Source: Burkholderiales bacterium
Lineage (GTDB): Bacteria; Pseudomonadota; Gammaproteobacteria; Burkholderiales; SG8-39
DNA: 64,000 nucleotides
Assembly (NCBI GenBank): GCA_035702665.1
Contig: DASSQD010000035.1
Location: 17,719 to 81,718 of the forward strand
Direction: 5' to 3'
Notes under the pieces: generated by a model
The model's database searches: none
What the model was told of the DNA's origin: nothing
What the model saw: the letters and a program-made list of their open reading frames with translations, nothing else
Part shown: positions 4,028-33,540 of the stretch, in pieces
How the letters are laid out: every line of letters starts with the position of its first letter
How positions within the stretch are numbered: position 1 is the stretch's first letter
Translations under genes and position numbers: made by a program

Positions 4028-4043
4028 TGGCTGGAGGTAGCCG

Positions 4044-16650: not shown

Positions 16651-16732
16651 GGTTGAGGTCGCAGTACGACCTTAGACTTTTCAAGTTTTGGGAGACCGCA
16701 GCGTGCGGTCCGGCCAACGCAAGGAGACCACC

Positions 16733-18484: not shown

Positions 18485-19756
18485 ATGCAAGCCCTCAAGG
18501 GAGTCCGCATCCTCGACATGACGCACGTCCAGGCGGGCCCGACCTGCTCGCAGTTGCTCGCCTGGATGGGCGCCGACGTGATCAAGTTCGAGAACCCGCA
18601 GGGCGACGCGACGCGCGGCCAGCTGCGCGACGTGCCCAACGCCGACTCGCTGTACTTCACCATGCTCAACTGCAACAAGCGCTCCATCACGGTGAACATG
18701 AAGAGCGCCGAGGGCAAGACGGTGTTCGTCGATCTGCTGAGGAAATGCGACATCATCATGGAGAACTTCGGGCCCGGCGTGCTCGACCGCTTCGGCTTTT
18801 CCTGGGAGAAGATCCACGAGATCAACCCCAAGATCGTGATGGGCTCGATTAAGGGTTTCGGCTCCACCGGGCCGTACGCCGACTTCAAGGCCTACGAGAA
18901 CGTCGCGCAGGCGATGGGCGGCGCGATGAGCACCACCGGCGTGCCCGACGGGCCGCCGTTTGTCACCGGCGCGCAGATCGGCGACTCGGGGACAGGCCTG
19001 CATCTCGCGATCGGCCTGCTCGCCGCGCTGCGCCAGGCAGACAAGACCGGCCAGGGTCAGTACGTCGAAGTCGCGATGATGGACGGGGTGATGAACTTGT
19101 GCCGAGTCAAGTTCCGCGACCATCAGCGCCTGACGCGCGGGTCCCTCTCGGAATACTCGGTGCCGACCTACCAGAACATGGGCGATGTGCCGCGCGCCGG
19201 CAACGACTCGGGCGGCGGCCAGCTCGGCAACGCGGTCCATTGCAAGCCGCACGGAGCGAACGACTGGCTTTACGTGGTCGTGCAGGAAGCGGTGTGGGAA
19301 GACCTCGCGAAGCGCATCGGTCCGGACGTCGGCGTACCCGACCTCGCGACCGATCCGCGGGTGGCGACCATCGGCGAGCGCCGCAAGAACCAGAATCTCG
19401 TGTGGACGCTGCTCAACAAGTTCGCCGAGAAATACACCAAGCGCGAGCTGATGGCGATCCTCAACCCACTCGACGTGCCCTGCGGCCCGATCATGTCCAC
19501 CGAAGACCTGGCTACCGACGAGCACGTGCGCGGCCGCGACATGTGGGTCGAGCTCGATCATCCCAAACGGGGCAAGTGGTACAACGTCGGCATGCCGATC
19601 AAGCTCTCGGCCTCGCCCGCTGCGATCAAGCGCTCGCCCATGCTCGGGGAGCACACCGATGAGATCCTGAAGGAAGTCCTTGGGTACGACGACGCCAAGG
19701 TCGCCGGCCTCAAGCAGGCGGGCGCGTTCTCGATTCCTCCGAAGAAGGCGGCGTAG
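18485..19756 (+). CDS. frc: Formyl-CoA:oxalate CoA-transferase (family III CoA-transferase)
   Basis: [36 protein letters not shown]..., 423 aa, 3-nt gap after oxc. Confidence 0.9.
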
Positions 19757-19758
19757 GA

Positions 19759-20691
19759 ATGAAAATAGCCATCATCGGCCAGCAGGACTTCGGCAAGGCG
19801 GTCCTCGACGCCTTTCTCGCGCGCGGCGACCAGGTCGCCGGCGTGTTCTGCGCCCCGGAGAAGGAAGGCGCCAAGGCCGACGTCCTCAAGGTGGCCGCGC
19901 AGGAAAAGGGCGTGAAGGTGTTCCAGTTCTCTTCGCTGCGGGACAAGCAGGCGCACGATACGATGCGTTCGCTCGGCGTGGACCTAGGGGTCATGGCCTA
20001 CGTGCTGCAATTCGCGCCGCAGGATTTCGTGAACATCCCGAAGAAGGGCACCCTCCAGTATCACCCGTCGCTCCTCCCCAAGTACCGCGGCCCGAGCTCG
20101 ATCAACTGGCCCATCATCCGCGGAGACACCAAGACCGGTTTGACCATCTTCCGTCCGAATGACGGACTCGACGAAGGTCCGGTGATCCTGCAGAAAGAGA
20201 CGCCGATCAGCGCCGACGACACCCTGGGTAGCGTATATTTCGACCGCCTCTTTCCCATGGGTGTGAAGGCGATGCTGGAAGCGGCGGACCTGGTGACGGC
20301 GGGCAAGCACAAGGAGACTGTCCAGGATGAGGCCCTCGCGAGCTACGAAGGCTGGTGCCGCGCCGCCGAGGCCAAGATCAACTGGGCGAACCACGTCGAT
20401 TTCACCTATAACCTCATCCGAGGCTGCAATCCGGCCCCGGGCGCATGGACCACGCTCGCCGGCAAGAAGGTCCAGATCTTCGACGCCCGCAAGCACCTGG
20501 TGCGCACGTTCGGCGCAGTAAAGGGCAAGATCGGCGAGATCTCGGAGATCGGCCCGCAGAGCTTCTTCGTAACCGCCCAGGGAGGTCGGATCGAGGTGCT
20601 CAAGGCGAAGCACGAAGACGGCAAGAAGGTCTCCGCTGCGGAATTCGTCTCGCAGAACGGCATTGCGTCGGGCGCTCTGCTCGGCGGCTAG
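19759..20691 (+). CDS. Formyltransferase-family protein (Fmt / 10-formyl-THF dehydrogenase N-terminal hydrolase-like, N- and C-terminal domains)
   Basis: 310 aa. QYHPSLLPKYRGPSSINWPIIRGDTKTGLTIFRPNDGLDEGPVILQ carries the formyltransferase His and Asp. The start lies 2 nt after the frc stop. Confidence 0.7.
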   Translation: MKIAIIGQQDFGKAVLDAFLARGDQVAGVFCAPEKEGAKADVLKVAAQEKGVKVFQFSSLRDKQAHDTMRSLGVDLGVMAYVLQFAPQDFVNIPKKGTLQYHPSLLPKYRGPSSINWPIIRGDTKTGLTIFRPNDGLDEGPVILQKETPISADDTLGSVYFDRLFPMGVKAMLEAADLVTAGKHKETVQDEALASYEGWCRAAEAKINWANHVDFTYNLIRGCNPAPGAWTTLAGKKVQIFDARKHLVRTFGAVKGKIGEISEIGPQSFFVTAQGGRIEVLKAKHEDGKKVSAAEFVSQNGIASGALLGG

Positions 20692-20937
20692 TCCTCTCCC
20701 CTAACCCCGTCGCGCCGCGGCGGACTCTCGGCAGGATTTGACGGGCCCAGCATTCACTGCAAGAATGCCGCCCAGGATTCTGTTTATTCAGGAACTTATC
20801 GCATCTTGGGAAAGCTCCGGCCGCAGACCCCGAGGTCGGGTCCGGCCGGAAACGGAGAAGGTGGGTAGCGTAGAATGCGAGTGCGAAACGGGGGCATTTC
20901 CCTCGCCAAACAATAATAAGAACAAGCGGGAGAGGCG

Positions 20938-23505
20938 ATGAGCAAAGCGGGCTTCTGGAAAAAGGACTGGTTCCTCGGTCTGGTGGTGTCGCTCGTGCTG
21001 TTGTTCGCCGGTGGCTCGCAGCTGATCCAGAGCCTGGAGCGCACGGCCTACGACTGGGGCGTCAGGGCGTCCTCGCGGATACCTTCCGACAAGGTCGCGA
21101 TCATCGCGATCGACAAGCAGAGCATCGACAACATCGGCCGCTGGCCCTGGTCGCGCGAGATTCACGCGAAGATGATCGAGCGACTCGCGGGCGTGAAGGC
21201 GAAGGTCATCGGCTACACGGTGTTCTTCTCGGAGCCGCAAATCGACCCGGGGTTCGCCTACGTCAACCGGCTTCTCGAGACCTACCACAAGATCGTTCCG
21301 GCCGACGCGAGCACGCCGCCCCGCGGCGTCTCCCCCGAAGTGCTGGAGATGGGCACTACGCTGCAGGAAGCGGAAAACGCGCTTAACACCGACCGGAAGC
21401 TGGCAGACAGCTTCGCCAAGGCGGGAAATGTGGTGCTGCCGATACTCTTCACCTTCGGCGAGCCACGCGGCAAGCCCGACAAGCCGCTTCCTGACTTTGT
21501 GCGGAAGAACGCGCTCGCCTTCCAGGGCAAGAGCGAGGACCTGCCGTTGCTCACGTCGGGGGTCGAGGTCCCCGTGGTCGAGAGCCTGGGCGCCGCGGCC
21601 GCGGCGGTGGGGCACCTGAACGCGGTTCCCGACGTCGACGGAGCGATTCGCACCGAGGCTTTGGCGATCACCTACTACGACGAGTTCTACCCGTCGCTCG
21701 CGGCGATGCTGGTGGCCAAGAGCCTCAACCTCACGGCCCAGGACATAAAGATTCGCCCGGGCGAGGCGCTGCAGATCGGGAATTTCAAGGTGAGCGCCGA
21801 TCCAACGATGCAGATGTACACGTACTTTTACAAGGACCGCGACGGCAGGCCCGCAATTCCGGAGGACTCGTTCTTCGACGTCGCGAGCGGCAAGATCCCG
21901 CTGGACAAGTACCGCGACAAGATCGTTCTTATCGGTCCGACCGCGGCCGGCGTCGGCAGTGTCTTCGTGACGCCGGTGAATCCGGCGATGTCGTCGGTCG
22001 AGCTCCTCGCCCACACGGTTTCCTCGCTGCTGCAAGGGCATTTCTTCGTCGCGCCCACCTGGGGCTGGATCGTCGAGAGGCTGGTGTTCCTGGTGGTCGC
22101 CGCGTACCTGATCGCGCTGCTTCCGCGTCTGTCCGCGGGCTTGGGCGCCGGTATCACTGCCGGCATCGTCGCATTGCTGCTCGCAACCCACTTCGTGCTC
22201 ATGACGGGTCAGGGGATGTGGCTGCAGCTCATGCTGCCGCTCACGCTCCTCGTCGTGGGGCACGTGCTGCTCGTGACCAAGCGCTTCATGGTCACGGAAC
22301 GCGGCAAGGAAGTGTCCGATGCACAATCGGCCGCGAACGCGCGCATGCTCGGCCTGGCGTTCCAGGGTCAGGGCCAGCTCGACATGGCCTTCGACTATTT
22401 CCGCAAGGTCCCGCTCGACGACACCGTGATGGACAACCTCTACAACCTCGCGCTGGACTTCGAGCGCAAGCGCCAGTTCAACAAGGCCGAGGCGGTGTTC
22501 AGCTACATGGCCGGGTACAACCCCAAATTCCGAGACCTCGAATCCAAGCTCTCCCGCGCCAAGCAGATGTCGGAGACAGTCATTCTCGGTGGGGCGACGA
22601 CCCACCCGGGCGGCACGCTGGCGCTGGGCGGAGGGACGGAAAAGCCGATGCTCGGGCGCTACCAGGTCGAGAAAGAGCTAGGCAAGGGCGCCATGGGTGT
22701 CGTATACCTGGGTAAGGACCCGAAGATCGGCCGGGTCGTCGCTATCAAGACGATGGCGCTGTCGCAGGAATTCGAGGCGGACGAGTTGGCCGAGGTAAAG
22801 GAGCGGTTCTTCCGGGAGGCGGAGACGGCGGGGCGCTTGAGCCACCCGAACATCGTGACGATCTTCGATGCCGGCGAAGAGCACGACCTGTGCTACATCG
22901 CGATGGAGCTTCTGAAGGGAAAGGACCTGATTCCCTATACCAAGGCCGGCAGCACCCTCCCGCTGGAGAAGGTCGTATCGATTGTCGCGCGGGTCGCCGA
23001 TGCGCTGGGGTACGCGCACAAGCACAACGTGGTGCACCGGGACGTCAAGCCGGCGAACGTCATGTACGAGCTGGAGAACGACGTGGTCAAGGTGACCGAT
23101 TTCGGCATTGCCAGGATCACCGACTCCTCCAGGACGAAGACCGGTATGGTGCTGGGCACGCCGTCCTACATGTCACCCGAGCAGCTGCAGGGAAAGAAGA
23201 TCGACGGTCGCAGCGACCTGTTCTCGCTCGCGGTCAGCTTGTACCAGTTGGCCTGCGGCGAGCTGCCCTTCAAGGGAGAATCGATGGCGCAGCTCATGTA
23301 CAAGATCGCGAACGAGGACGCCCCTGATATCCTGAAGTACAACACCACGCTTCCCCCGGCGTTCGTCGCGTTTCTGGACAAGGCCATGTCGAAGGAGGCC
23401 GATCAGCGCTTCCAGACCGGCGAGGAGTTCGCCTCTGCGTTACGGGCTGCCGTTGGCGGTACGGGTGCCGCTGCGGCGGGCACCGGGGTCGACATCACCC
23501 TCTGA
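20938..23505 (+). CDS. CHASE2 sensor / TM / TPR-like / Hanks-type Ser/Thr protein kinase
   Basis: 855 aa. The N-terminus has TM1 then IAIDKQSIDNIGRWPWSR (CHASE2), and three TM segments at about residues 380-450. The C-terminal kinase carries GKGAMGVVYLG, VAIKTM, HRDVKPANV, DFGIAR and GTPSYMSPE. Confidence 0.85.
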   Translation: MSKAGFWKKDWFLGLVVSLVLLFAGGSQLIQSLERTAYDWGVRASSRIPSDKVAIIAIDKQSIDNIGRWPWSREIHAKMIERLAGVKAKVIGYTVFFSEPQIDPGFAYVNRLLETYHKIVPADASTPPRGVSPEVLEMGTTLQEAENALNTDRKLADSFAKAGNVVLPILFTFGEPRGKPDKPLPDFVRKNALAFQGKSEDLPLLTSGVEVPVVESLGAAAAAVGHLNAVPDVDGAIRTEALAITYYDEFYPSLAAMLVAKSLNLTAQDIKIRPGEALQIGNFKVSADPTMQMYTYFYKDRDGRPAIPEDSFFDVASGKIPLDKYRDKIVLIGPTAAGVGSVFVTPVNPAMSSVELLAHTVSSLLQGHFFVAPTWGWIVERLVFLVVAAYLIALLPRLSAGLGAGITAGIVALLLATHFVLMTGQGMWLQLMLPLTLLVVGHVLLVTKRFMVTERGKEVSDAQSAANARMLGLAFQGQGQLDMAFDYFRKVPLDDTVMDNLYNLALDFERKRQFNKAEAVFSYMAGYNPKFRDLESKLSRAKQMSETVILGGATTHPGGTLALGGGTEKPMLGRYQVEKELGKGAMGVVYLGKDPKIGRVVAIKTMALSQEFEADELAEVKERFFREAETAGRLSHPNIVTIFDAGEEHDLCYIAMELLKGKDLIPYTKAGSTLPLEKVVSIVARVADALGYAHKHNVVHRDVKPANVMYELENDVVKVTDFGIARITDSSRTKTGMVLGTPSYMSPEQLQGKKIDGRSDLFSLAVSLYQLACGELPFKGESMAQLMYKIANEDAPDILKYNTTLPPAFVAFLDKAMSKEADQRFQTGEEFASALRAAVGGTGAAAAGTGVDITL

Positions 23506-23520
23506 ATCGGGCCGAGCGCC

Positions 23521-24345
23521 ATGAGCCTGTCGGGAGCACTGGAGATCGCGAGCTGTACGGATCCCGGGATGGTGCGGGCTCACAACGAGGACTCGATCGC
23601 CTCCGACGGGGAAAAGGGACTGGTGGTCCTCGCCGACGGAATGGGGGGCTACAACGCGGGGGAGGTGGCGAGCGGCATGGCGACGACGGTGATCATCACC
23701 GAGTTGCAGCACTTGCTCGACAAGAGGACCCCGTACGAAACCGACGCGGCGAGCGGCCAGGTGATCGCGCACCAGCTGCTTCACGAGCAGATCGCCAAGG
23801 CGAACACCTCGATCTATCAGGCAGCGCAGAGCCAGCCTCAGTACGCCGGCATGGGGACGACACTGGTCGTCGCCCTGTTCTACGACAACAAGATGACGGT
23901 GGCGCATATCGGCGATTCACGCCTCTATCGCATGAGAGGCGACGAGCTGAAGCAGATCACCAAGGACCACTCCCTGCTGCAGGAGCAAATCGACAGCGGG
24001 GTGATCACCCCTCAGCAGGCCAAGCAATCGCAGAACAAGAACCTGGTCACGCGCGCTCTGGGCATCGATCCGATCGTCGAGCCCGAGATCCACGATCACG
24101 AGACGCAGCCGGGAGACATCTATCTGCTCTGCTCGGACGGCCTTTGTGATATGGTTGGCGACGAGGACATCGGCCTGGCGCTGCAAACACTGAGCTCCAA
24201 CTTGAAGCTGTGCGCACAGCATCTGGTGCAGACGGCGAACGACAACGGGGGCCGGGACAATATTTCGGTAATACTCGTTCGGGTGCTGCGGGACTTCCCC
24301 GCTTCGCGCGGCATCGTTGGCAAGCTGATGAGCTGGTTTAGATAG
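23521..24345 (+). CDS. PP2C-family Ser/Thr protein phosphatase
   Basis: 274 aa with RAHNEDS, LADGMGG, GTTLVV and SDGL..., NGGRDNISV motifs. Confidence 0.85.
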   Translation: MSLSGALEIASCTDPGMVRAHNEDSIASDGEKGLVVLADGMGGYNAGEVASGMATTVIITELQHLLDKRTPYETDAASGQVIAHQLLHEQIAKANTSIYQAAQSQPQYAGMGTTLVVALFYDNKMTVAHIGDSRLYRMRGDELKQITKDHSLLQEQIDSGVITPQQAKQSQNKNLVTRALGIDPIVEPEIHDHETQPGDIYLLCSDGLCDMVGDEDIGLALQTLSSNLKLCAQHLVQTANDNGGRDNISVILVRVLRDFPASRGIVGKLMSWFR

Positions 24346-24365
24346 TTGAGCAGAGGGATACTGCT

Positions 24366-25124
24366 ATGGCGAAGCTGATACTGAGCATGGACGGCCTGGT
24401 TCTGAAGGAAATCAACTTGACCAAGGAACGTACCACCATCGGCCGCAAGCCGCATAACGACATCCAGATCGACAATCTCGCGGTGAGCGGGGAGCACGCC
24501 GTGATTGTCACCATCCTGCAGGATTCGTTTCTCGAGGACCTCGGCAGCACGAACGGAACGGTCGTGAACGGACAATCGATCAAGAAGCACTTCCTGCAGA
24601 ACAACGACATCATCGAGCTAGGCAAGTACAAACTCAAGTACGTCAACGAGACGCCCGCGGGCATGGCGAAAGCCGCCGATTTCGAGAAAACCATGGTTCT
24701 GCGCCCCGGCGCGACTAGGCCAGCGGCATCCGCTGCTCCCGCCGCGCCGGTAGCCGCGGCCGCACCGGCACCCGCGGCGGCGAAGGCTGGCGACACCGTC
24801 CAGGGGCCTGCCACGACCATGCCACCGGCGGCTGCCAAGCCGGCGACGAGCGCCCCGCAGAAATCGGCGGCCCTGCAACTCCTTTCCGGGGCGAACGCCG
24901 GCAAGGAGCTCGATCTCACCAAGCCGCTCACGACGCTCGGCAAGCCTGGCGTGCAGGTCGCCGTCATCACGCGCAGGCCCCAGGGGTTCTTCATCACGCA
25001 TGTCGAGGGGGCCAGCTTTCCGGTGGTGAACGGCAAGCCGCTCGACGCCCAGGCGCACGCGTTGAACGATCACGACGTGATCGAGCTGGCCGGAGTCAAG
25101 ATGGAATTCTTCCTGAAGGCGTGA
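24366..25124 (+). CDS. FHA-domain protein (canonical N-terminal FHA, Ala/Pro-rich linker, degenerate C-terminal FHA-like domain)
   Basis: N-terminal TIGRKPHNDIQIDNLAVSGEHAVI...STNGTVVNG carries the G-R / S-x-x-H / N-G signature. The C-terminal domain (TTLGKPGVQVAVI...ITHVEG...VNGK) lacks the Arg and Ser. Confidence 0.8.
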   Translation: MAKLILSMDGLVLKEINLTKERTTIGRKPHNDIQIDNLAVSGEHAVIVTILQDSFLEDLGSTNGTVVNGQSIKKHFLQNNDIIELGKYKLKYVNETPAGMAKAADFEKTMVLRPGATRPAASAAPAAPVAAAAPAPAAAKAGDTVQGPATTMPPAAAKPATSAPQKSAALQLLSGANAGKELDLTKPLTTLGKPGVQVAVITRRPQGFFITHVEGASFPVVNGKPLDAQAHALNDHDVIELAGVKMEFFLKA

Positions 25125-25158
25125 GCCCGGGGCCCGACGTCCGCCGCGGGGAGGGAGC

Positions 25159-27420
25159 CTGAAGCAGCATATCGTCCGAATTGCGCTTGGCCTCCTCGTC
25201 ACGCTGGTCTTTCTGGGGCACGCCGCCAAGCTCTATCAGATAGGGTTCATTACCCAGCTCGACAACATCATCTACGACTATCGGCTGCGCCTGACCATGC
25301 CGGGCACGGTCGACGACAGGATCGTAATCCTGGACATCGACGAGCGCAGCTTGGACCCGCGCGCTCTGGGGCGCTGGCCATGGAGCCGCGACAAGATCGC
25401 AGTGCTCCTCCAGAAGCTGTTCGACAAGTACGGCGTTCTCATCGTCGGCTTCGACGTCGTCTTCGCCGAGCCGGACGAGAGCTCCGGCCTCCCGGTCCTC
25501 GAGCGGCTGGGTAAAACACGTCTCAAGGACATCGGCGCCTTCCAGTCCGCGCTCGTGCAGTTGCGCCCCGAGCTGGATTACGACACGAGCTTCGCGAACT
25601 ACATTCGCGGACGGCCCGTGGTCCTCAGCTACTATTTCAACAGCGACAAGAACGCGGTCGAGAGCGGCGCGCTGCCCGAGCCCGTTCTCCCAGCCGAAAC
25701 GTTCAGCGGAAGGCGGATCACGATCCTCGATTGGCGCGGGTACACGGGTAACCTGGCCGAGTTCCAGGCGAATGCCAGCGCCGGTCATTTCAATCCGCGG
25801 GTGGACGACGACGGTGTATCACGGCGCGTGCCGATGCTCGCGGAATACAAGGGCCAGTACTACGAGGCGTTCTCCCTGGCGATCGTGCGGATGTACCTCG
25901 CGATCCAGGAAGCGGCGAGAAGCAAGGCGGCCGCGGTCAAGCTGCCGGATGTCAAGATCAACGCGATCCCGGATCGCTTCGTCACGCGCGGCTACACGGG
26001 AGTGGAGTGGCTCGAGGTGGGCCCCCTCAAAGTGCCCGTAGACGACGAAATTGCCGCGCAGGTTCCGTACCGCGGCCCGAGAGGCAGCTTCCCCTATGTT
26101 TCGCTGGCGGACATCTGGTCGGACAAAGTTGCGTCGGAGAAACTCCGAGGCAAGATCGCGCTGGTCGGCGCTACCGCGCCCGGCCTGTTCGATCTTCGTT
26201 CCGCACCGGTCGGGAATGTCTACCCTGGGGTGGAAATACACGCCAACCTGGTTGCAGGAATTCTCGACGGCAAGCTCAAGCAAAAGCCGCCGTACATGCT
26301 CGGTGCGGAAGTGGTGCTCCTTGTTATCGGCGGCATCGCGCTCACGTTTTTGATTCCCTTGCTTTCGCCCCTCTGGGCCTCGGCCGCGGCGCTGATCGGG
26401 ACGGCCCTCATTACACTCGTCGACCTCGCGCTGTGGTCGTATTCCGGCTTGGTGCTGCCCCTCGCCGCGTCGGTCCTGATGACTGCCACTCTGTATACGG
26501 TCAACATGGCTTACGGGTACTTCGTCGAGGCGCGTTCCAAGCGGCAGTTCACGGAGCTCTTTGGGCAATATGTCCCACCAGAGCTGGTGGACAAGATGGC
26601 CGAAGACCCGCAGCAGTATACGATGGAGCCGCACAACGCCGAGCTCACCATCCTGTTCTCCGACGTACGCGGATTTACCAGCATTTCGGAAGCGCTCAGC
26701 CCCGAGCACCTGCGCGAATACATCAACGAGTACTTGACCGACATGAGCGACATCATCCGCGCGAAGCACCGCGGCACGCTCGACAAGTACATCGGCGACG
26801 CGATCATGGCGTTCTGGAATGCCCCGGTCGAGGACAAATTCCACCCCCGCAGTGGCGTTCTCGCTGCGATGGAGATGCTGCGCCAGTGCGATGTCTTGAA
26901 CCAGAGGTTCGCCGCGCGCGGATGGCCGACACTCAAGATCGGCATCGGCGTCAACTCCGGAAACGTGCGCGTCGGCGACATGGGGTCCAAGATACGCAAG
27001 GCGTACACCGCGATGGGCGATGCGGTGAACGTTGCCTCGAGACTGGAAGGCAGGACCAAGCATTACGGGGCAGGGATACTCGTCGGTGAGGAGACACGCA
27101 AGGTTGTCCAGGACGTGGTTTTCAAGGAGATCGACAAGATCAAAGTCAAGGGGAAGGACGAGGCAATCACGATCTACGAGCCGGTCGGGATGGAGACCCA
27201 CGTCGAAAAGCGGGTTCTCGAGGAGCTCAAGCTCTGGCACCAGACACTGCGGCAATATCGCCTGCACCAGTGGGACCAGGTCGAGGTGGGTCTACTGAAT
27301 CTGCAGCGCATGAATCCCGACTGCTACCTCTACAAGCTGTACGCCAGCGAGGTCGCCGACAAGCGCCGTAATCCGCCGCCGGCCGGGTGGGACGGCGTAA
27401 CGGTGTTCGATGAAAAATAG
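25159..27420 (+). CDS. CHASE2 sensor / TM / class III adenylate cyclase (IIIb-like), probable non-canonical CTG start
   Basis: The first ATG (25297) would remove TM1 and the start of CHASE2. The frame is open from 25117 and encodes LKQHIVRIALGLLVTLVFLGHAAKLYQ..., homologous to the N-terminus of the kinase's CHASE2 domain. GGAGG at 25150-25154. Catalytic domain: ILFSDVRGFT, LDKYIGDAIMAFW, YTAMGDAVNVASRLE. Confidence 0.75.
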   Translation: MKQHIVRIALGLLVTLVFLGHAAKLYQIGFITQLDNIIYDYRLRLTMPGTVDDRIVILDIDERSLDPRALGRWPWSRDKIAVLLQKLFDKYGVLIVGFDVVFAEPDESSGLPVLERLGKTRLKDIGAFQSALVQLRPELDYDTSFANYIRGRPVVLSYYFNSDKNAVESGALPEPVLPAETFSGRRITILDWRGYTGNLAEFQANASAGHFNPRVDDDGVSRRVPMLAEYKGQYYEAFSLAIVRMYLAIQEAARSKAAAVKLPDVKINAIPDRFVTRGYTGVEWLEVGPLKVPVDDEIAAQVPYRGPRGSFPYVSLADIWSDKVASEKLRGKIALVGATAPGLFDLRSAPVGNVYPGVEIHANLVAGILDGKLKQKPPYMLGAEVVLLVIGGIALTFLIPLLSPLWASAAALIGTALITLVDLALWSYSGLVLPLAASVLMTATLYTVNMAYGYFVEARSKRQFTELFGQYVPPELVDKMAEDPQQYTMEPHNAELTILFSDVRGFTSISEALSPEHLREYINEYLTDMSDIIRAKHRGTLDKYIGDAIMAFWNAPVEDKFHPRSGVLAAMEMLRQCDVLNQRFAARGWPTLKIGIGVNSGNVRVGDMGSKIRKAYTAMGDAVNVASRLEGRTKHYGAGILVGEETRKVVQDVVFKEIDKIKVKGKDEAITIYEPVGMETHVEKRVLEELKLWHQTLRQYRLHQWDQVEVGLLNLQRMNPDCYLYKLYASEVADKRRNPPPAGWDGVTVFDEK

Positions 27421-27435
27421 GACGGGCGCCGCTCC

Positions 27436-28203
27436 ATGAAGCTCAGGATTCTGGGCTGCAGCGGAGGCATAGGCGGGCGGCACCTCCGCACGACGTCCAT
27501 GCTGCTGGACAACGATATCCTCGTCGACGCCGGGACCGGGGTAGCAGATCTTTCCCTGACCGAGCTCTCCCTCATCGACCACGTTTTCCTGACACACTCG
27601 CACCTGGACCACATCTCGAGCATCCCGTTCATGGTGGACACGGTCGGTGGAATGCGCGACCAGCCGCTCACGGTCTGGGCAGTACCGGCGACGCTCGAGA
27701 TCCTGCGCAGCCACATCTTCAACTGGAGCGTCTGGCCGGACTTCTCACAGATTCCAAGCCCGGACCAGCCGTTTCTCAGGTATCGCGAGATCCAGGTCGG
27801 CGACACGGTCGAGTTGAAAAAGCGAAAGCTGACGGCGCTTCCCGCCAACCATGTCGTACCCGCCGTCGGGTATCACCTGGATTCCGGAAAGGGCAGCCTG
27901 GTATTCACCGGTGACACCACGACGAACGATCCTCTTTGGGTTATCGTCAACAAGATATCCAATCTGAAGTACCTGATCATCGAGACCGCCTTCTGCAACC
28001 GCGAGAAGGAGCTGGCGGTGATCTCGAAACATCTCTGCCCGAGCATGCTCGCCGACGAGTTGGGCAAGCTCGAGCGCACCGCGGAGATCTACATCACCCA
28101 TCTAAAGCCGGGTGAAATCGAGTTGACCATGCAGGAAATCGAGGAGGACGCAGGCCAGTACCGCCCGCGGATGCTGCAAAACAATCAGGTTTTTGAGTTC
28201 TGA
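27436..28203 (+). CDS. Class II 3',5'-cyclic-nucleotide phosphodiesterase (metallo-beta-lactamase fold)
   Basis: 255 aa. MKLRILGCSGG..., the HSHLDH motif (THSHLDHISSIP) and the overall length match the class II cAMP PDE family. Confidence 0.75.
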   Translation: MKLRILGCSGGIGGRHLRTTSMLLDNDILVDAGTGVADLSLTELSLIDHVFLTHSHLDHISSIPFMVDTVGGMRDQPLTVWAVPATLEILRSHIFNWSVWPDFSQIPSPDQPFLRYREIQVGDTVELKKRKLTALPANHVVPAVGYHLDSGKGSLVFTGDTTTNDPLWVIVNKISNLKYLIIETAFCNREKELAVISKHLCPSMLADELGKLERTAEIYITHLKPGEIELTMQEIEEDAGQYRPRMLQNNQVFEF

Positions 28204-28215
28204 GGCGGGCGGAGG

Positions 28216-29283
28216 ATGTGCGCGACTAGAGTGAGCGCGGAGACGTTGAAAGGCTTCGAGCCCATCGGCTCGCTGCCCGACTCGCGCCTCAACGAGCTCG
28301 CGGGGCTCTGCAAGCTCGAGACGGTCGGCAAGGACTCCGAGTCGTTTCTGGTTCGCAACATCTCCGGACAGGCCGTCTATCTGCTGCGCGGGGAACTAGT
28401 GCTGACCTACCCGGACGGTACGTCGAAGATCCTCGTGGGAGGCTCGGAGCGCTCGCGATATCCGCTCGCACATCGCGGCGAAGTCTTCACGAGCGCCAAG
28501 GCCGTCACGGAAGTGGAGCTGATGCGCATCGACGACGACCTTCTCGACGTCATGGCAACTTGGGATCAGGTCGCCGCGGTCGAGAGCTCGCCGAAGAAGA
28601 CCGCAAAGGAGAGCGGCGCATTCGCCAACTGGTCGATGATGTCGGGGATGTTCAGCGTCAGCAGCCTGAAGTACGGTGCTTTCTCGCAATTGCCGCCGGC
28701 ACATATCGACGAGCTGCTGGGTCGCTTCGAGCGCGTTACGTTCAAGAAGGGCGATGTCGTGATTCGCGAGGGTGCGGAGGGCGACTTCTATTTCGTGATC
28801 GAAACGGGCCGGTGCAGGGTCGAGCGGATGGTCGGGGGAGTGTCCATGCTGCTCGCCGAGCTGAAGAGCGGAGACGCTTTCGGCGAGGAGGCGCTGGTGT
28901 CCGAGGTCAAGCGCAATGCCACGGTGACGATGAAGAGCGACGGCACATTGCTGAAGCTATCGAAGAAGGATTTCGTGGAGCTGCTGCGCGAGCCGCTGCT
29001 GCAGCGCATATCCGCGGAGGACGCGCGCGCGAAGGTGGTCGACGGTGCGCAGTGGATCGACGTGCGCTATCCGTCCGAATACCAGTACGACAAACTTCCC
29101 GGGGCCATCAATATTCCCCTGTCGGACATTCGCAATGCCTTCGGCGCCCTGGACAAGGGAAAGGAGTACGTGCTCTACTGCCAGAGCGAGCGCCGCAGCG
29201 CCGCGGCGGCGTTTCTCATGGCCCAGCGGGGGTACCGGGCGTACGTGCTCGCGGGCGGCCTCTGGGGCGAAACGAAGCGGTGA
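28216..29283 (+). CDS. Cyclic-nucleotide-binding domain protein with a C-terminal rhodanese domain
   Basis: A degenerate N-terminal CNB-like domain. A second CNB domain has an intact phosphate-binding cassette (GDAFGEEALVSEVKRNATV). The C-terminal rhodanese has WIDVRYPSEY...YCQSERRSAAAA, including the active-site Cys loop. Confidence 0.8.
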   Translation: MCATRVSAETLKGFEPIGSLPDSRLNELAGLCKLETVGKDSESFLVRNISGQAVYLLRGELVLTYPDGTSKILVGGSERSRYPLAHRGEVFTSAKAVTEVELMRIDDDLLDVMATWDQVAAVESSPKKTAKESGAFANWSMMSGMFSVSSLKYGAFSQLPPAHIDELLGRFERVTFKKGDVVIREGAEGDFYFVIETGRCRVERMVGGVSMLLAELKSGDAFGEEALVSEVKRNATVTMKSDGTLLKLSKKDFVELLREPLLQRISAEDARAKVVDGAQWIDVRYPSEYQYDKLPGAINIPLSDIRNAFGALDKGKEYVLYCQSERRSAAAAFLMAQRGYRAYVLAGGLWGETKR

Positions 29284-29451
29284 GGGCGCGCGCAAAGCGG
29301 GTATTCCGACCGGTCAGGCGCGATTCTCGCTTGCTGGAAAGCAGTTGCAGGCTCCGGCGCGTGAATAACGCCCGGCCGCGCACGGGTGAACGGTGGTAAA
29401 GTAATTGATTATCTGGCCATTTCGGGTGCTGGACACTAGGGTGGGTTGCCA

Positions 29452-31818
29452 ATGAGCGCGGTACTACAGACGCACGTGGGCGCGGCCGGCGATGTCAACA
29501 GCCGGTTGAATTTCCAGAAGAATCTCCAGAGCGTCACCAACAAGATCCACGCCACCACCAACGTGGATGAGATCATGCTGGAAGTCAGCGCCGACATCTG
29601 CACCTTGTTCAACGCCGACCGCCTGACGATCTACACCGTGGGCGAGGACAAGCAGAGCATTGTCTCCAAGGTCAAGACGGGCCTCAACTCGTTCAAAGAC
29701 CTCAAGCTGCCCATCGCAGAGCACTCCATCGCAGGCTTCGTTGCGCTGTCGAAGAAGATGCTCAGCCTGAGGGACGTCTACGACGAGAGCGAGCTCAGGG
29801 CACACAATCACAATTTGCGCTTTCTGCAGGAAGTCGACAAGCGCACGGGCTATCGCACCAAGCAGATGCTGGTTGCGCCGGTGGCGGAGCCCGGAAGCGG
29901 GGAACTGGTCGGTGTAGTCCAGTTAATCAACAACAAGGCCGGCGTTCCCTTTGGCCAACTCGCCGAAGAGGGCGTGAGCGAGCTTTGCCAGACGCTGGCT
30001 ATCGCCCTCAAGCAGCGCCAGAAGCCGCAGGTTCTCAAGACCAAGTACGACTTCCTCGTCGGCGACGCGGTGATCTCCGCCGCGGAGTTCGAGCTGGCGG
30101 CGCGCTCGGCGCGCAAGAAGGCGGTCGACGTCGAAGATGTGCTGACCCAGGAATTCCAGGTCAAGCTTCCCGCGATAGGCGCGGCGCTGGCGAAGTTCTT
30201 CGGGACGCCCTACGAGCCTTTCAAGCCGGATCGCATCAAGCCGATGGATCTGCTGAAGAACCTGAAGCGCGAGTACGTGGATTCCAATCAATGGGTCCCG
30301 ATCGAGGATTCCAAGGAAGGCCTCGTTATCCTTTGCCTCGATCCGGAGCGAATCAAGAGCTCGCGCATCGTCCAGAACGTCTTCCCGGGCCGCAAGCTGA
30401 CGTACCGCGTCACGACTCTCAAGGAGTTCAAGGACACGCTCAAGGCCTTCTATGGCGCGGACGCGGTCGACAGCGGCGACATCGGCGACATGCTTCACGA
30501 CCTCCAGGAAGACGAAGGTCCGGCGGAGACGGGGGATGACGATGTTTCGGCGGCGGCCGACAACGAGTTGGTCAAGCTGGTCAACAAGATCATCATCGAT
30601 GCCTACAACCAGGGTGCCTCCGACATCCACATCGAGCCTTATCCGGGCAAGGGGAAGACCGAGATCCGACTAAGAAAAGACGGCTCGCTGGTTCCCTATA
30701 TCGAGGTCCCGGGGTCCTACCGGAACGCCATTGTGGCGCGCATCAAGATCATGTGCGATCTCGACATCTCGGAAAAGCGCAAGCCGCAGGACGGCAAGAT
30801 CAAGTTCAAGAAATTCGGGCCGCTCGACATCGAGCTGCGGGTGGCGACGATTCCGTCCCAGGGCGGCGTCGAGGACGTGGTCATGCGTATCCTCGCCGCG
30901 GGGGAGCCTATCCCGATCGACAAGCTGGGGCTTTCGCCTTCAAACCTGCCAAAGCTCAAGGAGACGGTCAGCAAGCCCTACGGGCTGTTCTTCTGCTGCG
31001 GTCCCACTGGCTCGGGCAAGACCACGACGCTGCACTCGGTGCTGGGTTTCCTGAACACGCCCGACACCAAGATCTGGACTGCCGAGGACCCGGTCGAAAT
31101 CACGCAGAAAGGCCTGCGCCAGGTGCAGGTCAACAAGAAGGCGGGTCTCGATTTCGCTGCGGTCATGAAGTCCTTCCTCCGCGCGGATCCGGACATCATC
31201 ATGGTCGGCGAGATGCGCGACAAGGAGACCACCGGGACCGGCATCGAGGCCTCGCTCACGGGTCACTTGGTGTTCGCGACGCTGCATACCAACAGCGCTC
31301 CCGAATCCATCATCCGCTTGCTCGACATGGGTATGGACCCCTTCAATTTCGCCGACGCGCTGCTGGGGATTCTCGCGCAGCGGCTGGCCAAGCGCCTCTG
31401 CAGCAAGTGCAAGCAGCCCTACGCCGCCGGCGCGGACGAGATGAAGCATATCCTGCAAGAGTATTGCACCGAACTTCTGAATACCGGCCCGTTCAAGAAG
31501 GACGCCAAATCAGCCTACGAGCATGTCTACCGTGACCTTGCGAAGCACTACGCCAACGACAAGGGGCAGTTCACCCTTTACAGGGCCAAGGGCTGCGATG
31601 CCTGCGGCAATACGGGATACAAAGGGCGGGTCGGTCTGCACGAGCTCCTGATTGCGTCCGATCACCTCAAGAAGTTGATCCAGGAGCACGCGCGGGTAGC
31701 CGAGATCCTGGCGCTCGCCCTTGAAGAAGGTATGCGGACCCTGAAGATGGATGGCATCGAGAAGGTGCTTCAAGGCATTACCGACATGCCGCAGGTCCGC
31801 GCGGTCTGCATCAAGTAA
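29452..31818 (+). CDS. PilB/GspE-family secretion ATPase with an N-terminal GAF domain and a T2SSE_N domain
   Basis: About 788 aa. The GAF domain lies at about residues 30-190 (...FLQEVDKRTGYRTKQMLVAPV...GVVQLINNK). Walker A GPTGSGKTT, Walker B DPDIIMVGEMRD, His box GHLVFATLHTN, tetra-Cys CSKC...CDAC. ATG at 29452 (track start: TTG at 29446). Confidence 0.85.
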   Translation: MSAVLQTHVGAAGDVNSRLNFQKNLQSVTNKIHATTNVDEIMLEVSADICTLFNADRLTIYTVGEDKQSIVSKVKTGLNSFKDLKLPIAEHSIAGFVALSKKMLSLRDVYDESELRAHNHNLRFLQEVDKRTGYRTKQMLVAPVAEPGSGELVGVVQLINNKAGVPFGQLAEEGVSELCQTLAIALKQRQKPQVLKTKYDFLVGDAVISAAEFELAARSARKKAVDVEDVLTQEFQVKLPAIGAALAKFFGTPYEPFKPDRIKPMDLLKNLKREYVDSNQWVPIEDSKEGLVILCLDPERIKSSRIVQNVFPGRKLTYRVTTLKEFKDTLKAFYGADAVDSGDIGDMLHDLQEDEGPAETGDDDVSAAADNELVKLVNKIIIDAYNQGASDIHIEPYPGKGKTEIRLRKDGSLVPYIEVPGSYRNAIVARIKIMCDLDISEKRKPQDGKIKFKKFGPLDIELRVATIPSQGGVEDVVMRILAAGEPIPIDKLGLSPSNLPKLKETVSKPYGLFFCCGPTGSGKTTTLHSVLGFLNTPDTKIWTAEDPVEITQKGLRQVQVNKKAGLDFAAVMKSFLRADPDIIMVGEMRDKETTGTGIEASLTGHLVFATLHTNSAPESIIRLLDMGMDPFNFADALLGILAQRLAKRLCSKCKQPYAAGADEMKHILQEYCTELLNTGPFKKDAKSAYEHVYRDLAKHYANDKGQFTLYRAKGCDACGNTGYKGRVGLHELLIASDHLKKLIQEHARVAEILALALEEGMRTLKMDGIEKVLQGITDMPQVRAVCIK

Positions 31819-31865
31819 GGCGGCGCGACGCCGCTCGATCCACGGCCGGCTACCCTGGGGGGTTC

Positions 31866-33521
31866 TTGGAGACCGACGAAGATCTGTTTCGCCGTCTCGA
31901 GCAGCTTAACGAGATCGGCTCTGCCCTCTCGCAGGAGAAAGATATCGATCACCTGCTGGAGAAGATCCTTCTCGCGGCGAAGGCGATCACGCGTGCCGCG
32001 GGCGGTACCCTGTACGTCCTGGAGCCCTCCGATGAGGGCCCGCGGCTCAGGTTCGCGATCATGAGGAACGAGGCATTGGGCATTGCGATGGGAGGCACCA
32101 CCGGCAACCCCATACCCTTCTATCCGGTTCACCTGTACGGAAAGGACGGAAAACCGAACAACCAGATGGTCGCTGCGTATGCGGCCCTTACCAGCAAGAC
32201 GGTCAACATCGCAGACGCCTATTCGGAAGAGGGTTTCGATTTCTCCGGGACACGCAATTTCGACAGGAAGACGGGATACCGATCCAAAGCTTTCCTCACC
32301 GTTCCGATGAAGAACCACGAAGGCGAGATCATCGGCGTGCTCCAGTTGATCAACCGCATGGAGCCGGGAACGAACGAGGTAGGCCCTTTTGCCTCGTCCG
32401 ACCAGCGTCTTGCGGAATCTCTCGCGTCGCAGGCTGCCATCGCGCTTACGAATCGGCAGCTCATCAATCAGCTCGAGGTATTGTTCGAGTCCTTCATCGC
32501 GCTCATCAACACCGCTATAGACGAGAAGTCCCCGTACACGGGGGGGCACTGTCAGCGCGTCCCTGTGCTCACGATGATGCTCGCCGAGGCTGTCAACGAG
32601 ACTTATGAAGGGCCGCTTCGCGAATTCAAGATGACCGACAAGGACCGCTATGAGCTTAAGATAGCCGGCCTGCTGCACGATTGCGGGAAAGTGACGACTC
32701 CGGTGCACGTCGTGGACAAGGCCACCAAGCTCGAGACGATCTTCGACCGGATCAATCTTCTGGACACGCGTTTCGAGGTGCTCAAGCGCGATCTCGAGAT
32801 CGAGGCGTTGATGCGCAAGCTTGAGGTCGCGCGGAAGCGTGGCCTGAGCGAGAGCGCTGCGCGCGAGGAATCGGCGCGCGTCGACGAGGGCTATCGCGAA
32901 GGTCTGCGGGCCCTGGAAAGCGACCGCGAGTTCCTGCGTCACGCCAACATCGGGGGTGAGGTCATGTCGGCTGAGGCGCGTGATCGCGTGGTCCGCATCG
33001 GTACCGGGCGCAAGTGGGTCGACGCGACAGGGAACATGGCGGACTTCCTCACGCCCGACGAGATCAACAACCTCACGATCGCTCGCGGTACGCTGACCCA
33101 GGAGGAACGCGAGACCATCAACCACCACATCGTCGCTACGATAAAGATGCTTGAGGCGCTGCCTTGGCCCAAGCATCTGCGCAACGTCCCGGAATACGCC
33201 GGCGGTCACCACGAACGCATGGACGGGAAGGGCTATCCCCGGGGACTGACGCGCGAGAAGATGTCCGTCCAAGCCCGGGTCATGGGGATTGCCGACATAT
33301 TCGAGGCACTGACGGCGAAAGACCGGCCGTACAAGCGCGGCAAGACTCTCTCCGAGTCGCTGAAGATTCTAGGCAACTTCCGGTTGAACGGCCACATCGA
33401 TCCGGACCTGTTCGACGTATTCGTGCGCAAGAAGGTGTATTTGCGCTATGCCGAACAGTTCCTCGACCGTGATCAGATCGACGAGGTCGAAGAGTCCAAG
33501 ATCCCGGGATTCGTGCCGTAG
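31866..33521 (+). CDS. GAF-domain HD-GYP phosphohydrolase (putative c-di-GMP phosphodiesterase)
   Basis: 551 aa. N-terminal GAF (...NFDRKTGYRSKAFLTVPM...GVLQLINRM). HD-GYP core: LLHDCGK ... GGHHERMDGKGYPRGL. TTG start. Confidence 0.85.
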   Translation: METDEDLFRRLEQLNEIGSALSQEKDIDHLLEKILLAAKAITRAAGGTLYVLEPSDEGPRLRFAIMRNEALGIAMGGTTGNPIPFYPVHLYGKDGKPNNQMVAAYAALTSKTVNIADAYSEEGFDFSGTRNFDRKTGYRSKAFLTVPMKNHEGEIIGVLQLINRMEPGTNEVGPFASSDQRLAESLASQAAIALTNRQLINQLEVLFESFIALINTAIDEKSPYTGGHCQRVPVLTMMLAEAVNETYEGPLREFKMTDKDRYELKIAGLLHDCGKVTTPVHVVDKATKLETIFDRINLLDTRFEVLKRDLEIEALMRKLEVARKRGLSESAAREESARVDEGYREGLRALESDREFLRHANIGGEVMSAEARDRVVRIGTGRKWVDATGNMADFLTPDEINNLTIARGTLTQEERETINHHIVATIKMLEALPWPKHLRNVPEYAGGHHERMDGKGYPRGLTREKMSVQARVMGIADIFEALTAKDRPYKRGKTLSESLKILGNFRLNGHIDPDLFDVFVRKKVYLRYAEQFLDRDQIDEVEESKIPGFVP

Positions 33522-33540
33522 GTCCCGGGAATACGGTTTG

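Follow-up and report, generated by a model that had tools for sequence, protein, structure and literature searches.

A conserved, uncharacterised eight-gene signalling cluster of Betaproteobacteria with a class IIIb-type adenylate cyclase, a phosphodiesterase candidate and a CNB-rhodanese protein at its centre

Outside the CRP-type transcription factors, the effectors of cyclic AMP (cAMP) in bacteria are few and poorly understood. In Pseudomonas aeruginosa, the system of CyaB, CpdA, Vfr and CbpA combines a membrane-anchored class IIIb cyclase and a dedicated phosphodiesterase (PDE) with a link to the type IV pilus, and CbpA, which Endoh and Engel (2009) reportedly described as a cAMP binder other than a transcription factor, is said to have one degenerate and one functional cyclic nucleotide-binding (CNB) domain. 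In Corynebacterium glutamicum, CpdA is a cytoplasmic PDE of the class II type which lowers cAMP alongside the class III cyclase CyaB (PMC7026483), and in Sinorhizobium meliloti the proteins CyaD1, CyaD2 and CyaK are fusions of a periplasmic CHASE2 sensor with a class III cyclase (PMC13001267). There is also a published precedent for a cAMP-activated GAF-HD-GYP enzyme, namely Tlr0485, and for type VI secretion a threonine phosphorylation pathway with PpkA, PppA and Fha1 has been described (PMC5995506). Here we report on a window of 64,000 nucleotides, that is, the whole stretch of Burkholderiales DNA that was analysed (contig DASSQD010000035.1 of assembly GCA_035702665.1), which holds at 20938-33521 a row of eight closely spaced genes on the forward strand, with an adenylate cyclase, a PDE candidate and a CNB-rhodanese protein, below called the cAMP trio, as genes 4-6. 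Gene content, domain identities, residues, folds and synteny are the observations of this study, and every ligand, activity and interaction named in the following is predicted from them.

The genes of the row follow one another as CHASE2-Ser/Thr kinase, PP2C phosphatase, FHA protein, cyclase, PDE, CNB-rhodanese protein, GAF-PilB/GspE-like ATPase and GAF-HD-GYP protein. When one genome of each species was scanned for relatives of the CNB-rhodanese protein, 360 loci came up, of which the best 80 (50-86% identity in this protein) were fetched, labelled L001-L080 and compared with the eight window proteins by tblastn. All of these best 80 come from metagenome-assembled genomes (MAGs) of the Betaproteobacteria type, including Burkholderiales, Rhodocyclaceae, Nitrosomonadales, Sideroxydans and Sulfuritalea. 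All 80 loci keep the colinear order on one strand; 77 of them have the trio and 49 the full set of eight genes, with contig ends cutting most of the rest. The intergenic gaps have medians of 13 and 35 nt within the trio and of 13-56 nt in the cluster, with the exception of 180 nt ahead of the ATPase gene, and the block stays constant while the flanking genes vary by clade. The locus is a coherent, widely conserved and uncharacterised signalling cluster. Every single domain in it is already known and the CNB-rhodanese architecture is annotated in databases; a literature search found no paper on this architecture or on the gene cluster. An earlier sequence-only reading of the window had taken the three genes at 25159-29283 (forward strand) for a self-contained set which writes, erases and reads cAMP. 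All three genes are present together with every motif it had named, and the very small E-values and the residues invariant among orthologues indicate that the domain matches are not due to chance. The set is not self-contained, since the trio forms the centre of the colinear eight-gene cluster and two probable cyclic nucleotide (cNMP) sensors of the GAF type are encoded downstream. We hold, with somewhat more confidence than doubt, that the trio is a working cAMP unit, central in the cluster, whose output would pass through the PilB-like ATPase and a pilus-like filament.

Some loci depart from the full row. The CHASE2-kinase gene is absent from L028, L032, L039, L043, L048 and L063 despite coverage, with PP2C and FHA kept, L061 misses both the cyclase and the ATPase, and the HD-GYP gene is not detectable in a few loci. 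The kinase-less loci and L061 are natural variants which could help dissect dependencies among the genes. In a promoter and terminator scan of 20500-36700 nothing stood out from shuffled sequence (promoter-like sites, 3 with 3.0 expected; terminator-like sites, 14 with 11.2 expected), so that the operon structure is read from gene spacing alone.

Compared with the described systems, the cluster has the membrane-anchored class IIIb cyclase, the dedicated PDE, here a candidate, and the type IV pilus link, here a probable one, in common with P. aeruginosa. However, the sensor of CyaB is MASE2 and that of the cluster CHASE2, and CpdA belongs to class III whereas the PDE candidate of the cluster is of the metallo-beta-lactamase (MBL), class II type. 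Moreover, the cluster encodes no CRP/Vfr-type DNA-binding reader, its own reader carries a rhodanese, and the clustering with a Ser/Thr kinase, PP2C and FHA set and with GAF proteins is seen here and not in P. aeruginosa. The pairing of a class III cyclase with a class II-type PDE recalls the CyaB/CpdA/GlxR system of C. glutamicum, but there the reader is a CRP-family transcription factor, the genes are unclustered and the cyclase is of class IIId with a HAMP domain. With S. meliloti the cluster shares the CHASE2-class III cyclase fusion; the output in that organism is the CRP-like Clr, and no PDE, CNB-rhodanese, ATPase or HD-GYP gene lies adjacent. As an analogy only, the cluster may be likened to type VI secretion with its threonine phosphorylation pathway: in both, genes for a membrane Ser/Thr kinase, a PP2C phosphatase and an FHA protein lie together beside that of a secretion-type ATPase; the cluster, in contrast, is without type VI secretion genes and its ATPase is of the PilB/GspE type.

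The product of the cyclase gene (25159..27420, forward strand), 753 residues long from its CTG codon, joins a CHASE2 membrane sensor to a class IIIb adenylate cyclase (Pfam CHASE2 2.2e-49, Guanylate_cyc 4e-22). Its catalytic domain extends over about 26626-27198, with ILFSDVRGFT at 26650-26679, LDKYIGDAIM at 26779-26808 and the motif YTAMGDAVNVASRLE at 27004-27048. The catalytic residues are the metal-binding D502 and D547, the substrate Lys K543, the Thr T617 and the transition-state residues N624 and R628; HMMER aligns all six with their counterparts in CyaC of Spirulina (1wc0) and CyaB of P. aeruginosa (3r5g), and none of them varies among 71 sequences. The closest solved relatives of the catalytic domain are CyaB 3r5g (2.3e-31), a Cya2-derived cyclase and CyaC 1wc0. 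Class IIIb enzymes have a pair of Lys and Thr where other adenylate cyclases have Lys and Asp, and K543 and T617 fall on the K/T pair of CyaC 1wc0 (vdKfvgd and fTaigp) and of CyaB 3r5g. Because the class III set (PF00211, 4e-22) and the Lys/Thr pair are both aligned and invariant, the enzyme belongs by sequence criteria to the class IIIb adenylate cyclases, as had been read from the K/T pair before. The K/T class includes bicarbonate-responsive members, although stimulation by bicarbonate is not a defining property of it. The Thr of the pair is "thought to be predictive" of such a response (PMC3383692). Whether this cyclase responds to bicarbonate is not readable from the Thr alone.

The start codon of the cyclase gene deserves a separate account. 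The frame is open from 25126 and has no ATG, GTG or TTG ahead of 25297; the CTG at 25159 is preceded by GGAGGGAG, and upstream of it the window, like many relatives, has a GGAGG motif. At the homologous position in 73 related loci the start codon is TTG (41), CTG (15), GTG (12) or ATG (3), and the conserved N-terminus, (L/V/M)KQHIVRIALGLL, is the first CHASE2 transmembrane helix. Since both the start position and the N-terminus are conserved in the relatives, 25159 is the correct start, as the sequence-only reading had it, with a non-canonical codon in this clade. The CHASE2 domain (PF05226) is a periplasmic domain flanked by transmembrane helices, the N-terminal one of which is present only with the CTG start. 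The ATG at 25297, given by a mechanical call of open reading frames, was rejected, as it removes the first CHASE2 transmembrane helix and homology backs 25159. Standard callers would shorten the cyclase by 46 residues in this way. Besides the window, CTG starts occur in L001-L012, L016, L018, L024 and L076, and weak start codons seem usual for this gene.

The next gene (27436..28203, forward strand) encodes a compact MBL-fold protein of 255 residues which is the candidate for a class II-type cyclic nucleotide PDE, with HSHLDH at 27595-27612 and an H.FN...WPD motif at 27712-27741. Pfam PDEase_II (PF02112) reaches 52.3 bits against a gathering cut-off of 23.7, covering profile positions 83-147 of 340 only, and Lactamase_B_2 scores slightly above it. 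The top sequence match in the PDB is yeast PDE1 (4ojv, 1.2e-8), with which the protein has THxHLDHIS and W.P.T...L..H.FN..WPD in common. Among 79 sequences, the MBL metal ligands H54, H56, D58, H59, H139, D160 and H222 are at least 97% conserved, and N96, W100, P101 and D102 are found in all 79. The PROSITE-type class II signature is H-x-H-L-D-H-[LIVM]-x-[GS]-[LIVMA]-[LIVM](2)-x-S-[AP]; the first nine positions of the window sequence HSHLDHISSIPFMVD fit it and the later ones do not.

The same protein may also be read as an RNase Z/BN-like nuclease or as another kind of phosphodiesterase, which would leave the set without a dedicated eraser. The NCBIfam matches are to RNase Z only, although all of them are sub-threshold, and JGI calls most relatives "ribonuclease BN", with "cAMP phosphodiesterase" also in use. 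For the AlphaFold2 (AF2) model of the protein (pLDDT 82.9), Foldseek ranks arylsulfatase, YhfI and RNase Z ahead of PDE1. However, the top RNase Z model, TIGR02651, gives 64.4 bits against a cut-off of 292.95 and covers the N-terminal half only, and membership in the RNase Z/RNase BN equivalogs was rejected with scores far under every RNase Z cut-off for a protein of 255 residues. PDEase_II lies above its own threshold, and PDE1, the best solved relative, shares with the protein a motif beyond the generic HxHxDH. In the Foldseek list, 4ojv stands at rank 17 with a TMq of 0.75, level with the top-ranked match and within 0.01 of the list maximum, and RNase Z, YhfI, arylsulfatase, PqqB, PhnP and the phage cyclic-nucleotide PDE Apyc1 score similarly, so the comparison is not discriminating. 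NCBI, moreover, names the relatives 3',5'-cyclic-nucleotide phosphodiesterase. The gene always lies between the cyclase and the CNB gene (median gap 13 nt), a fixed position which provides contextual support for a PDE role. We consider this alternative very improbable. A class II-type cNMP phosphodiesterase of compact size is the probable identity of the protein; no better candidate is available for the class II PDE that had been proposed here, and this assignment is the weakest of the three.

The reader of the trio (28216..29283, forward strand) is a tri-domain protein of 355 residues (Pfam cNMP_binding, PF00027, 3.3e-19; Rhodanese, PF00581, 5e-15), and a protein 100% identical to it is present in a Burkholderiales MAG. 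It consists of a degenerate CNB fold seen by Foldseek (about 28237-28584), a CNB domain with an intact cassette (about 28678-28995; Pfam residues 174-258) and a rhodanese (about 29014-29262; Pfam residues 267-349). The phosphate-binding cassette FGEEALVSEVKRNATV (28879-28926) aligns with those of apicomplexan PKG and PKA-R with G, E, R, A and T kept, and all 80 sequences keep G223, E224, R233, N234, A235, T236 and C322 without variation. An intact second CNB domain together with a rhodanese bearing its catalytic Cys, both claimed before, is thus borne out. For residues 1-150 there is no sequence match, and Pfam reports one CNB domain only. Nevertheless, Foldseek puts tandem CNB-A/B modules first, those of PKG and PKA-R, with 255-300 aligned columns (3shr, 6.9e-15, 290 columns). 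For distant homologues, P0161 for instance, Pfam itself reports two cNMP_binding stretches, and in the AF2 model (mean pLDDT 66.6) the N-terminal domain, at about 76-86 across most of its length and followed by a disordered linker at 115-164, is built as helix, beta-barrel and helix. By direct reading the first CNB of the window protein has no cassette. A degenerate first and an intact second CNB domain is therefore the right description. The likeness to PKA-R and PKG accordingly spans both CNB folds, with the cassette kept in the second; the differences are that the first cassette is lost, that there is no kinase partner or inhibitor sequence and that the C-terminus is a rhodanese. As for the ligand of the second domain, we infer cAMP solely from the neighbouring K/T cyclase.

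In the rhodanese, the loop from C322 to S328 (CQSERRS, 29179-29199) follows the pattern C-Q-[ST]-x-R-R-S in 80 sequences, where x is Gly in 55, Glu in 23, including the window, and Ala in 2. The top family and PDB matches (residues 278-349) are PspE and GlpE, both below their equivalog cut-offs. As in these enzymes, the Cys loop of the reader has six residues and is of the C-x-x-G-x-R-[ST] kind, with CQSGRRS in most orthologues; the reader differs from them in being fused to a tandem CNB module and, in the window copy, by Glu where most orthologues have Gly. From its sequence, the Cys322 loop is of the six-residue sulfurtransferase type, and activity and its control by cAMP are predicted. A phosphatase of the Cdc25/Acr2 type, with a seven-residue C-X5-R loop, was rejected, for in C322-Q-S-E-R-R-S the Arg residues stand at +4 and +5 and a Ser at +6. 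The rhodanese had been proposed as the output of the cAMP set, either as a sulfurtransferase or in a phosphatase-like form. The sulfurtransferase-type loop stands, the phosphatase-like type fails on loop length, and a role as the sole or final output is unlikely given the two further cNMP sensors downstream and the giant proteins that carry the same module.

These giants appeared in an exhaustive HMMER search, which found relatives in the form of 1201 representatives of 50%-identity clusters at E<1e-30. Many of the 1201 are 1200-1800 residues long and contain the whole module (query about 8-350) at the N-terminus with 37-43% identity. All four full-length giants checked in Pfam (P0160, P0161, P0171 and P0188) end in an FGE-sulfatase domain, and in P0161 a coiled coil of about 1000 residues and a transmembrane segment separate this domain from the tri-domain module. 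In both giants that were read (P0161 and P0152) the rhodanese Cys and the RNAT cassette are retained, including the N234 that follows the cassette Arg (R233-N234-A235-T236, 28912-28923). The place of the module at the front of giant proteins speaks more for a regulatory head than for a terminal enzyme.

On another reading the rhodanese would be an input: Cys322 would be persulfidated or oxidised by sulfane sulfur or oxidants, and the protein would sense the coincidence of cAMP with a redox or sulfur state and regulate a partner by binding to it, be it the ATPase, the FHA protein or the HD-GYP protein. The position of the module upstream of other domains in the giants is that of sensor heads, tandem CNB proteins such as its top fold matches PKA-R and PKG classically bind and release a partner, and many carriers belong to sulfur- or iron-oxidising lineages (Sulfuritalea, Sideroxydans, Nitrosomonadales). 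However, many other carriers are MAGs of soil Burkholderiales with no evident sulfur lifestyle, and the invariant C-Q-S-x-R-R-S loop is equally typical of active single-domain sulfurtransferases, with PspE and GlpE as top matches. The input role is doubtful in our view.

A Pycsar-like anti-phage system was also considered, in which the cyclase forms a cyclic nucleotide on infection and the CNB protein executes the response. PADLOC gives domain-level matches of the cyclase with PycC (3.1e-28) and of the CNB domain with Pycsar effectors (3.4e-08), but these reflect shared folds only. The K/T pair of the cyclase is of the purine (ATP) kind and the enzyme carries a CHASE2 sensor on the periplasmic side, the CNB protein is without a transmembrane or TIR killing domain, and a dedicated PDE lies alongside. 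Unlike defence islands, the locus is part of the core chromosome, among housekeeping genes, and colinear across family-level divergence; the remainder of the window holds valS, pepA, lptF/G, ilvB/C, leuA, pyrF, proS and formate dehydrogenase subunits. Membership in Pycsar was rejected on the fold-level nature of the PADLOC matches and the core chromosomal locus, and the defence role is scarcely credible.

Directly downstream of the reader lies the gene for the ATPase (29446..31818, forward strand; the ATG at 29452 is the likelier start), a protein of 790 residues with a GAF domain, a T2SSE_N-like region and a hexameric ATPase of the PilB/GspE type (Pfam T2SSE 9.2e-114, GAF, MshEN). It is 58-95% identical across related loci, and it is a distinct, strongly conserved subfamily of the T2SSE superfamily. 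The top PDB match of its GAF domain is to the cAMP-binding GAF domains of Anabaena CyaB2 (1ykd, 2.1e-25), followed by PDE10A GAF-B and PDE2A GAF-B. The MshEN receptor for cyclic di-GMP (c-di-GMP) is known to consist of two 24-residue motifs, RLGxxhhxxGhhxxxxLxxxLxxQ (PMC5013675). A relaxed form of this motif, with up to 2 substitutions allowed, had no match in the ATPase, and Pfam PF05157 (MshEN) matches residues 252-339 only; c-di-GMP binding through MshEN was rejected on the absence of the motif. Residues 196-251 hold a recognisable, though degenerate, remnant of the MshEN helices (KYDFLVGDAVISAAEFELAARSA) with the key Arg and Gly replaced and the cNMP-type GAF domain in front. The second-messenger input of the ATPase may thus have been swapped from MshEN to GAF.

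The last gene of the row (31866..33521, forward strand) encodes a GAF-HD-GYP phosphodiesterase of 551 residues in a conserved position (Pfam HD_5 2e-44, GAF), the GAF domain of which has its top PDB matches in the PDE5 GAF domains (3lfv, 7.6e-21), CyaB2 and the GAF-HD-GYP protein 4mcw. Judged by sequence, both GAF domains are further candidate cAMP readers. Tlr0485 has the same architecture as this protein and offers a published route from cAMP into c-di-GMP turnover; it is a cyanobacterial protein, likened here by architecture, and no such cluster is reported for it.

The front of the row is made of the genes for a CHASE2 sensor-Ser/Thr protein kinase of 855 residues (20938..23505; Pfam CHASE2 1.9e-54, Pkinase 3.8e-54), a PP2C-type Ser/Thr phosphatase of 274 residues (23521..24345; Pfam PP2C, NCBIfam Stp1_PP2C_phos with 254.9 bits against a cut-off of 230) and an FHA-domain protein of 252 residues with an Ala/Pro-rich linker and a conserved position (24366..25124; Pfam FHA 4.1e-22), all on the forward strand. 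The CHASE2 domains of the kinase and of the cyclase are 26% identical (E 2e-24), which marks them as paralogues. Past the linker, about residues 170-252 of the FHA protein resemble, to the eye, a second, degenerate FHA-like beta-sandwich (…TLGKPG…VITRR…FITHVEG…VNGKP…).

Beyond the row, a type IVa pilin gene (36037..36525, forward strand; Pfam N_methyl and Pilin) is associated with the cluster, not adjacent to it. A prepilin motif on the same strand, 0.2-4.3 kb 3' of the HD-GYP gene, was found in 35 of the 50 loci with enough sequence, distant clades included, and the pilin is present in 2-3 tandem copies at some loci (L028, L029, L035, L039, L044, L066 and L077). The region 33448-38274 also encodes a TPR protein with a GT41 (O-GlcNAc-transferase-like) domain and a PMT_2 protein with TPR; near the pilin, these two look like candidate pilin glycosylation enzymes.

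On the reading that we prefer, in which the trio is a cAMP unit within the cluster, the periplasm-facing CHASE2 sensor would gate a homodimeric class IIIb cyclase that converts ATP to cAMP, and the small cytoplasmic two-metal PDE with its MBL fold would degrade it. The paralogous CHASE2 receptor would drive the Ser/Thr kinase, so that threonine phosphorylation is set in parallel with the help of the PP2C phosphatase and the FHA phosphothreonine reader. Three likely receivers of cAMP would follow: the CNB-rhodanese protein, through the second CNB domain of its PKA-R/PKG-like tandem; the PilB/GspE-like ATPase, with a cNMP-type GAF domain at its N-terminus instead of the c-di-GMP-binding MshEN motif; and the GAF-HD-GYP phosphodiesterase, for which activation by cAMP is predicted from its analogy with Tlr0485. 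As the C-helix, or lid, of the CNB domain runs almost straight into the rhodanese, cAMP binding would reposition or unmask the Cys322 loop. The rhodanese would then serve some partner from the cluster as a persulfide carrier or thiol switch gated by cAMP, and would not be a sulfurtransferase of bulk metabolism. The likely output would be post-translational control of the ATPase and thereby of a type IV pilus-like filament.

Several points weigh against this scheme. The ATPase lies below the equivalog cut-offs of both PilB (TIGR02538, 481 against 675.65) and GspE (TIGR02533, 440.3 against 630.25), and the window has no other pilus genes, with none for PilC, PilD, PilM-Q or PilT. The 180-nt gap before the ATPase gene permits separate transcription. 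The NKFDE pattern of the GAF domains is kept only in part, with Ala at the Asp position in the ATPase and N-R...F...D-Q in the HD-GYP protein. In CNB domains the residue after the cassette Arg, which is Ala in PKA and Thr in PKG, tunes the preference between cAMP and cGMP; the invariant Asn of the reader is neither. The interdomain geometry of the AF2 model of the reader is unreliable (pTM 0.39). For the PDE, there remain the short span of the PDEase_II match (about 65 profile positions), the NCBIfam matches to RNase Z and the Foldseek ranks of RNase Z, YhfI and arylsulfatase.

The genes upstream of the cluster bear on a different proposal, in which the trio is autonomous and its end-point is a cAMP-controlled sulfurtransferase, with cAMP perhaps set by CO2 or bicarbonate from oxalate/formate metabolism and switching thiosulfate or persulfide transfer. 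The region 568-20691 holds a formate/oxalate-type set, including an MFS transporter and TctC/TctA, in which subunits resembling an NAD-linked formate dehydrogenase (2333-6851), a thiamine pyrophosphate (TPP) enzyme (16688-18481), a family III CoA-transferase (18485-19756) and a formyltransferase-like gene (19759-20691) are recognised. In favour of this proposal, 77 of 80 loci have the three genes side by side with short gaps, the reader has an intact cassette and an invariant catalytic Cys, and the K/T class to which the cyclase belongs has bicarbonate-responsive members. However, the CoA-transferase and formyltransferase genes adjoin the cluster only in Burkholderiales-type loci (L001-L065 and L075), and the eight-gene block persists without them in the loci of Rhodocyclaceae, Nitrosomonadales and Sideroxydans (L066-L074 and L076-L080). 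A functional link to the oxalate/formate genes was therefore rejected, and the CO2 idea of the sequence-only reading, which drew on this adjacency, is left without contextual support. In addition, the trio always stands within the eight-gene row in the loci examined and never alone, two more proteins with cNMP-type sensors follow it, and the presence of its reader module at the head of giant coiled-coil, transmembrane and FGE-domain proteins suits a regulatory role better. We judge an autonomous trio to be unlikely.

A bolder form of the scheme that we prefer would make the eight genes an undescribed betaproteobacterial super-module, in which the two CHASE2 paralogues turn one periplasmic cue into threonine phosphorylation and cAMP at once. 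Three types of receiver would then work side by side, including a PilB-like ATPase with the swap from MshEN to GAF and the first cyclic-nucleotide-gated rhodanese, whose Cys322 persulfide signalling would control a pilus-like machine. In this full form the idea is speculative, and we put it forward only tentatively.

If the parts of the locus work independently of one another, it is an ordinary collection of well-known signalling domains. If the scheme that we prefer is true, the CNB-rhodanese protein would represent a new class of receiver, which combines a cAMP-type binding site with a catalytic-looking rhodanese in a large family, and cyclic-nucleotide signalling would be tied to sulfur-transfer or thiol chemistry. 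The cluster would also offer a testable wiring, with a PilB-like motor ATPase as the point where cAMP converges with Ser/Thr phosphorylation and possibly with c-di-GMP. It would then regulate pilus-like filaments in Betaproteobacteria that are abundant in the environment, among them lineages that oxidise iron and sulfur.

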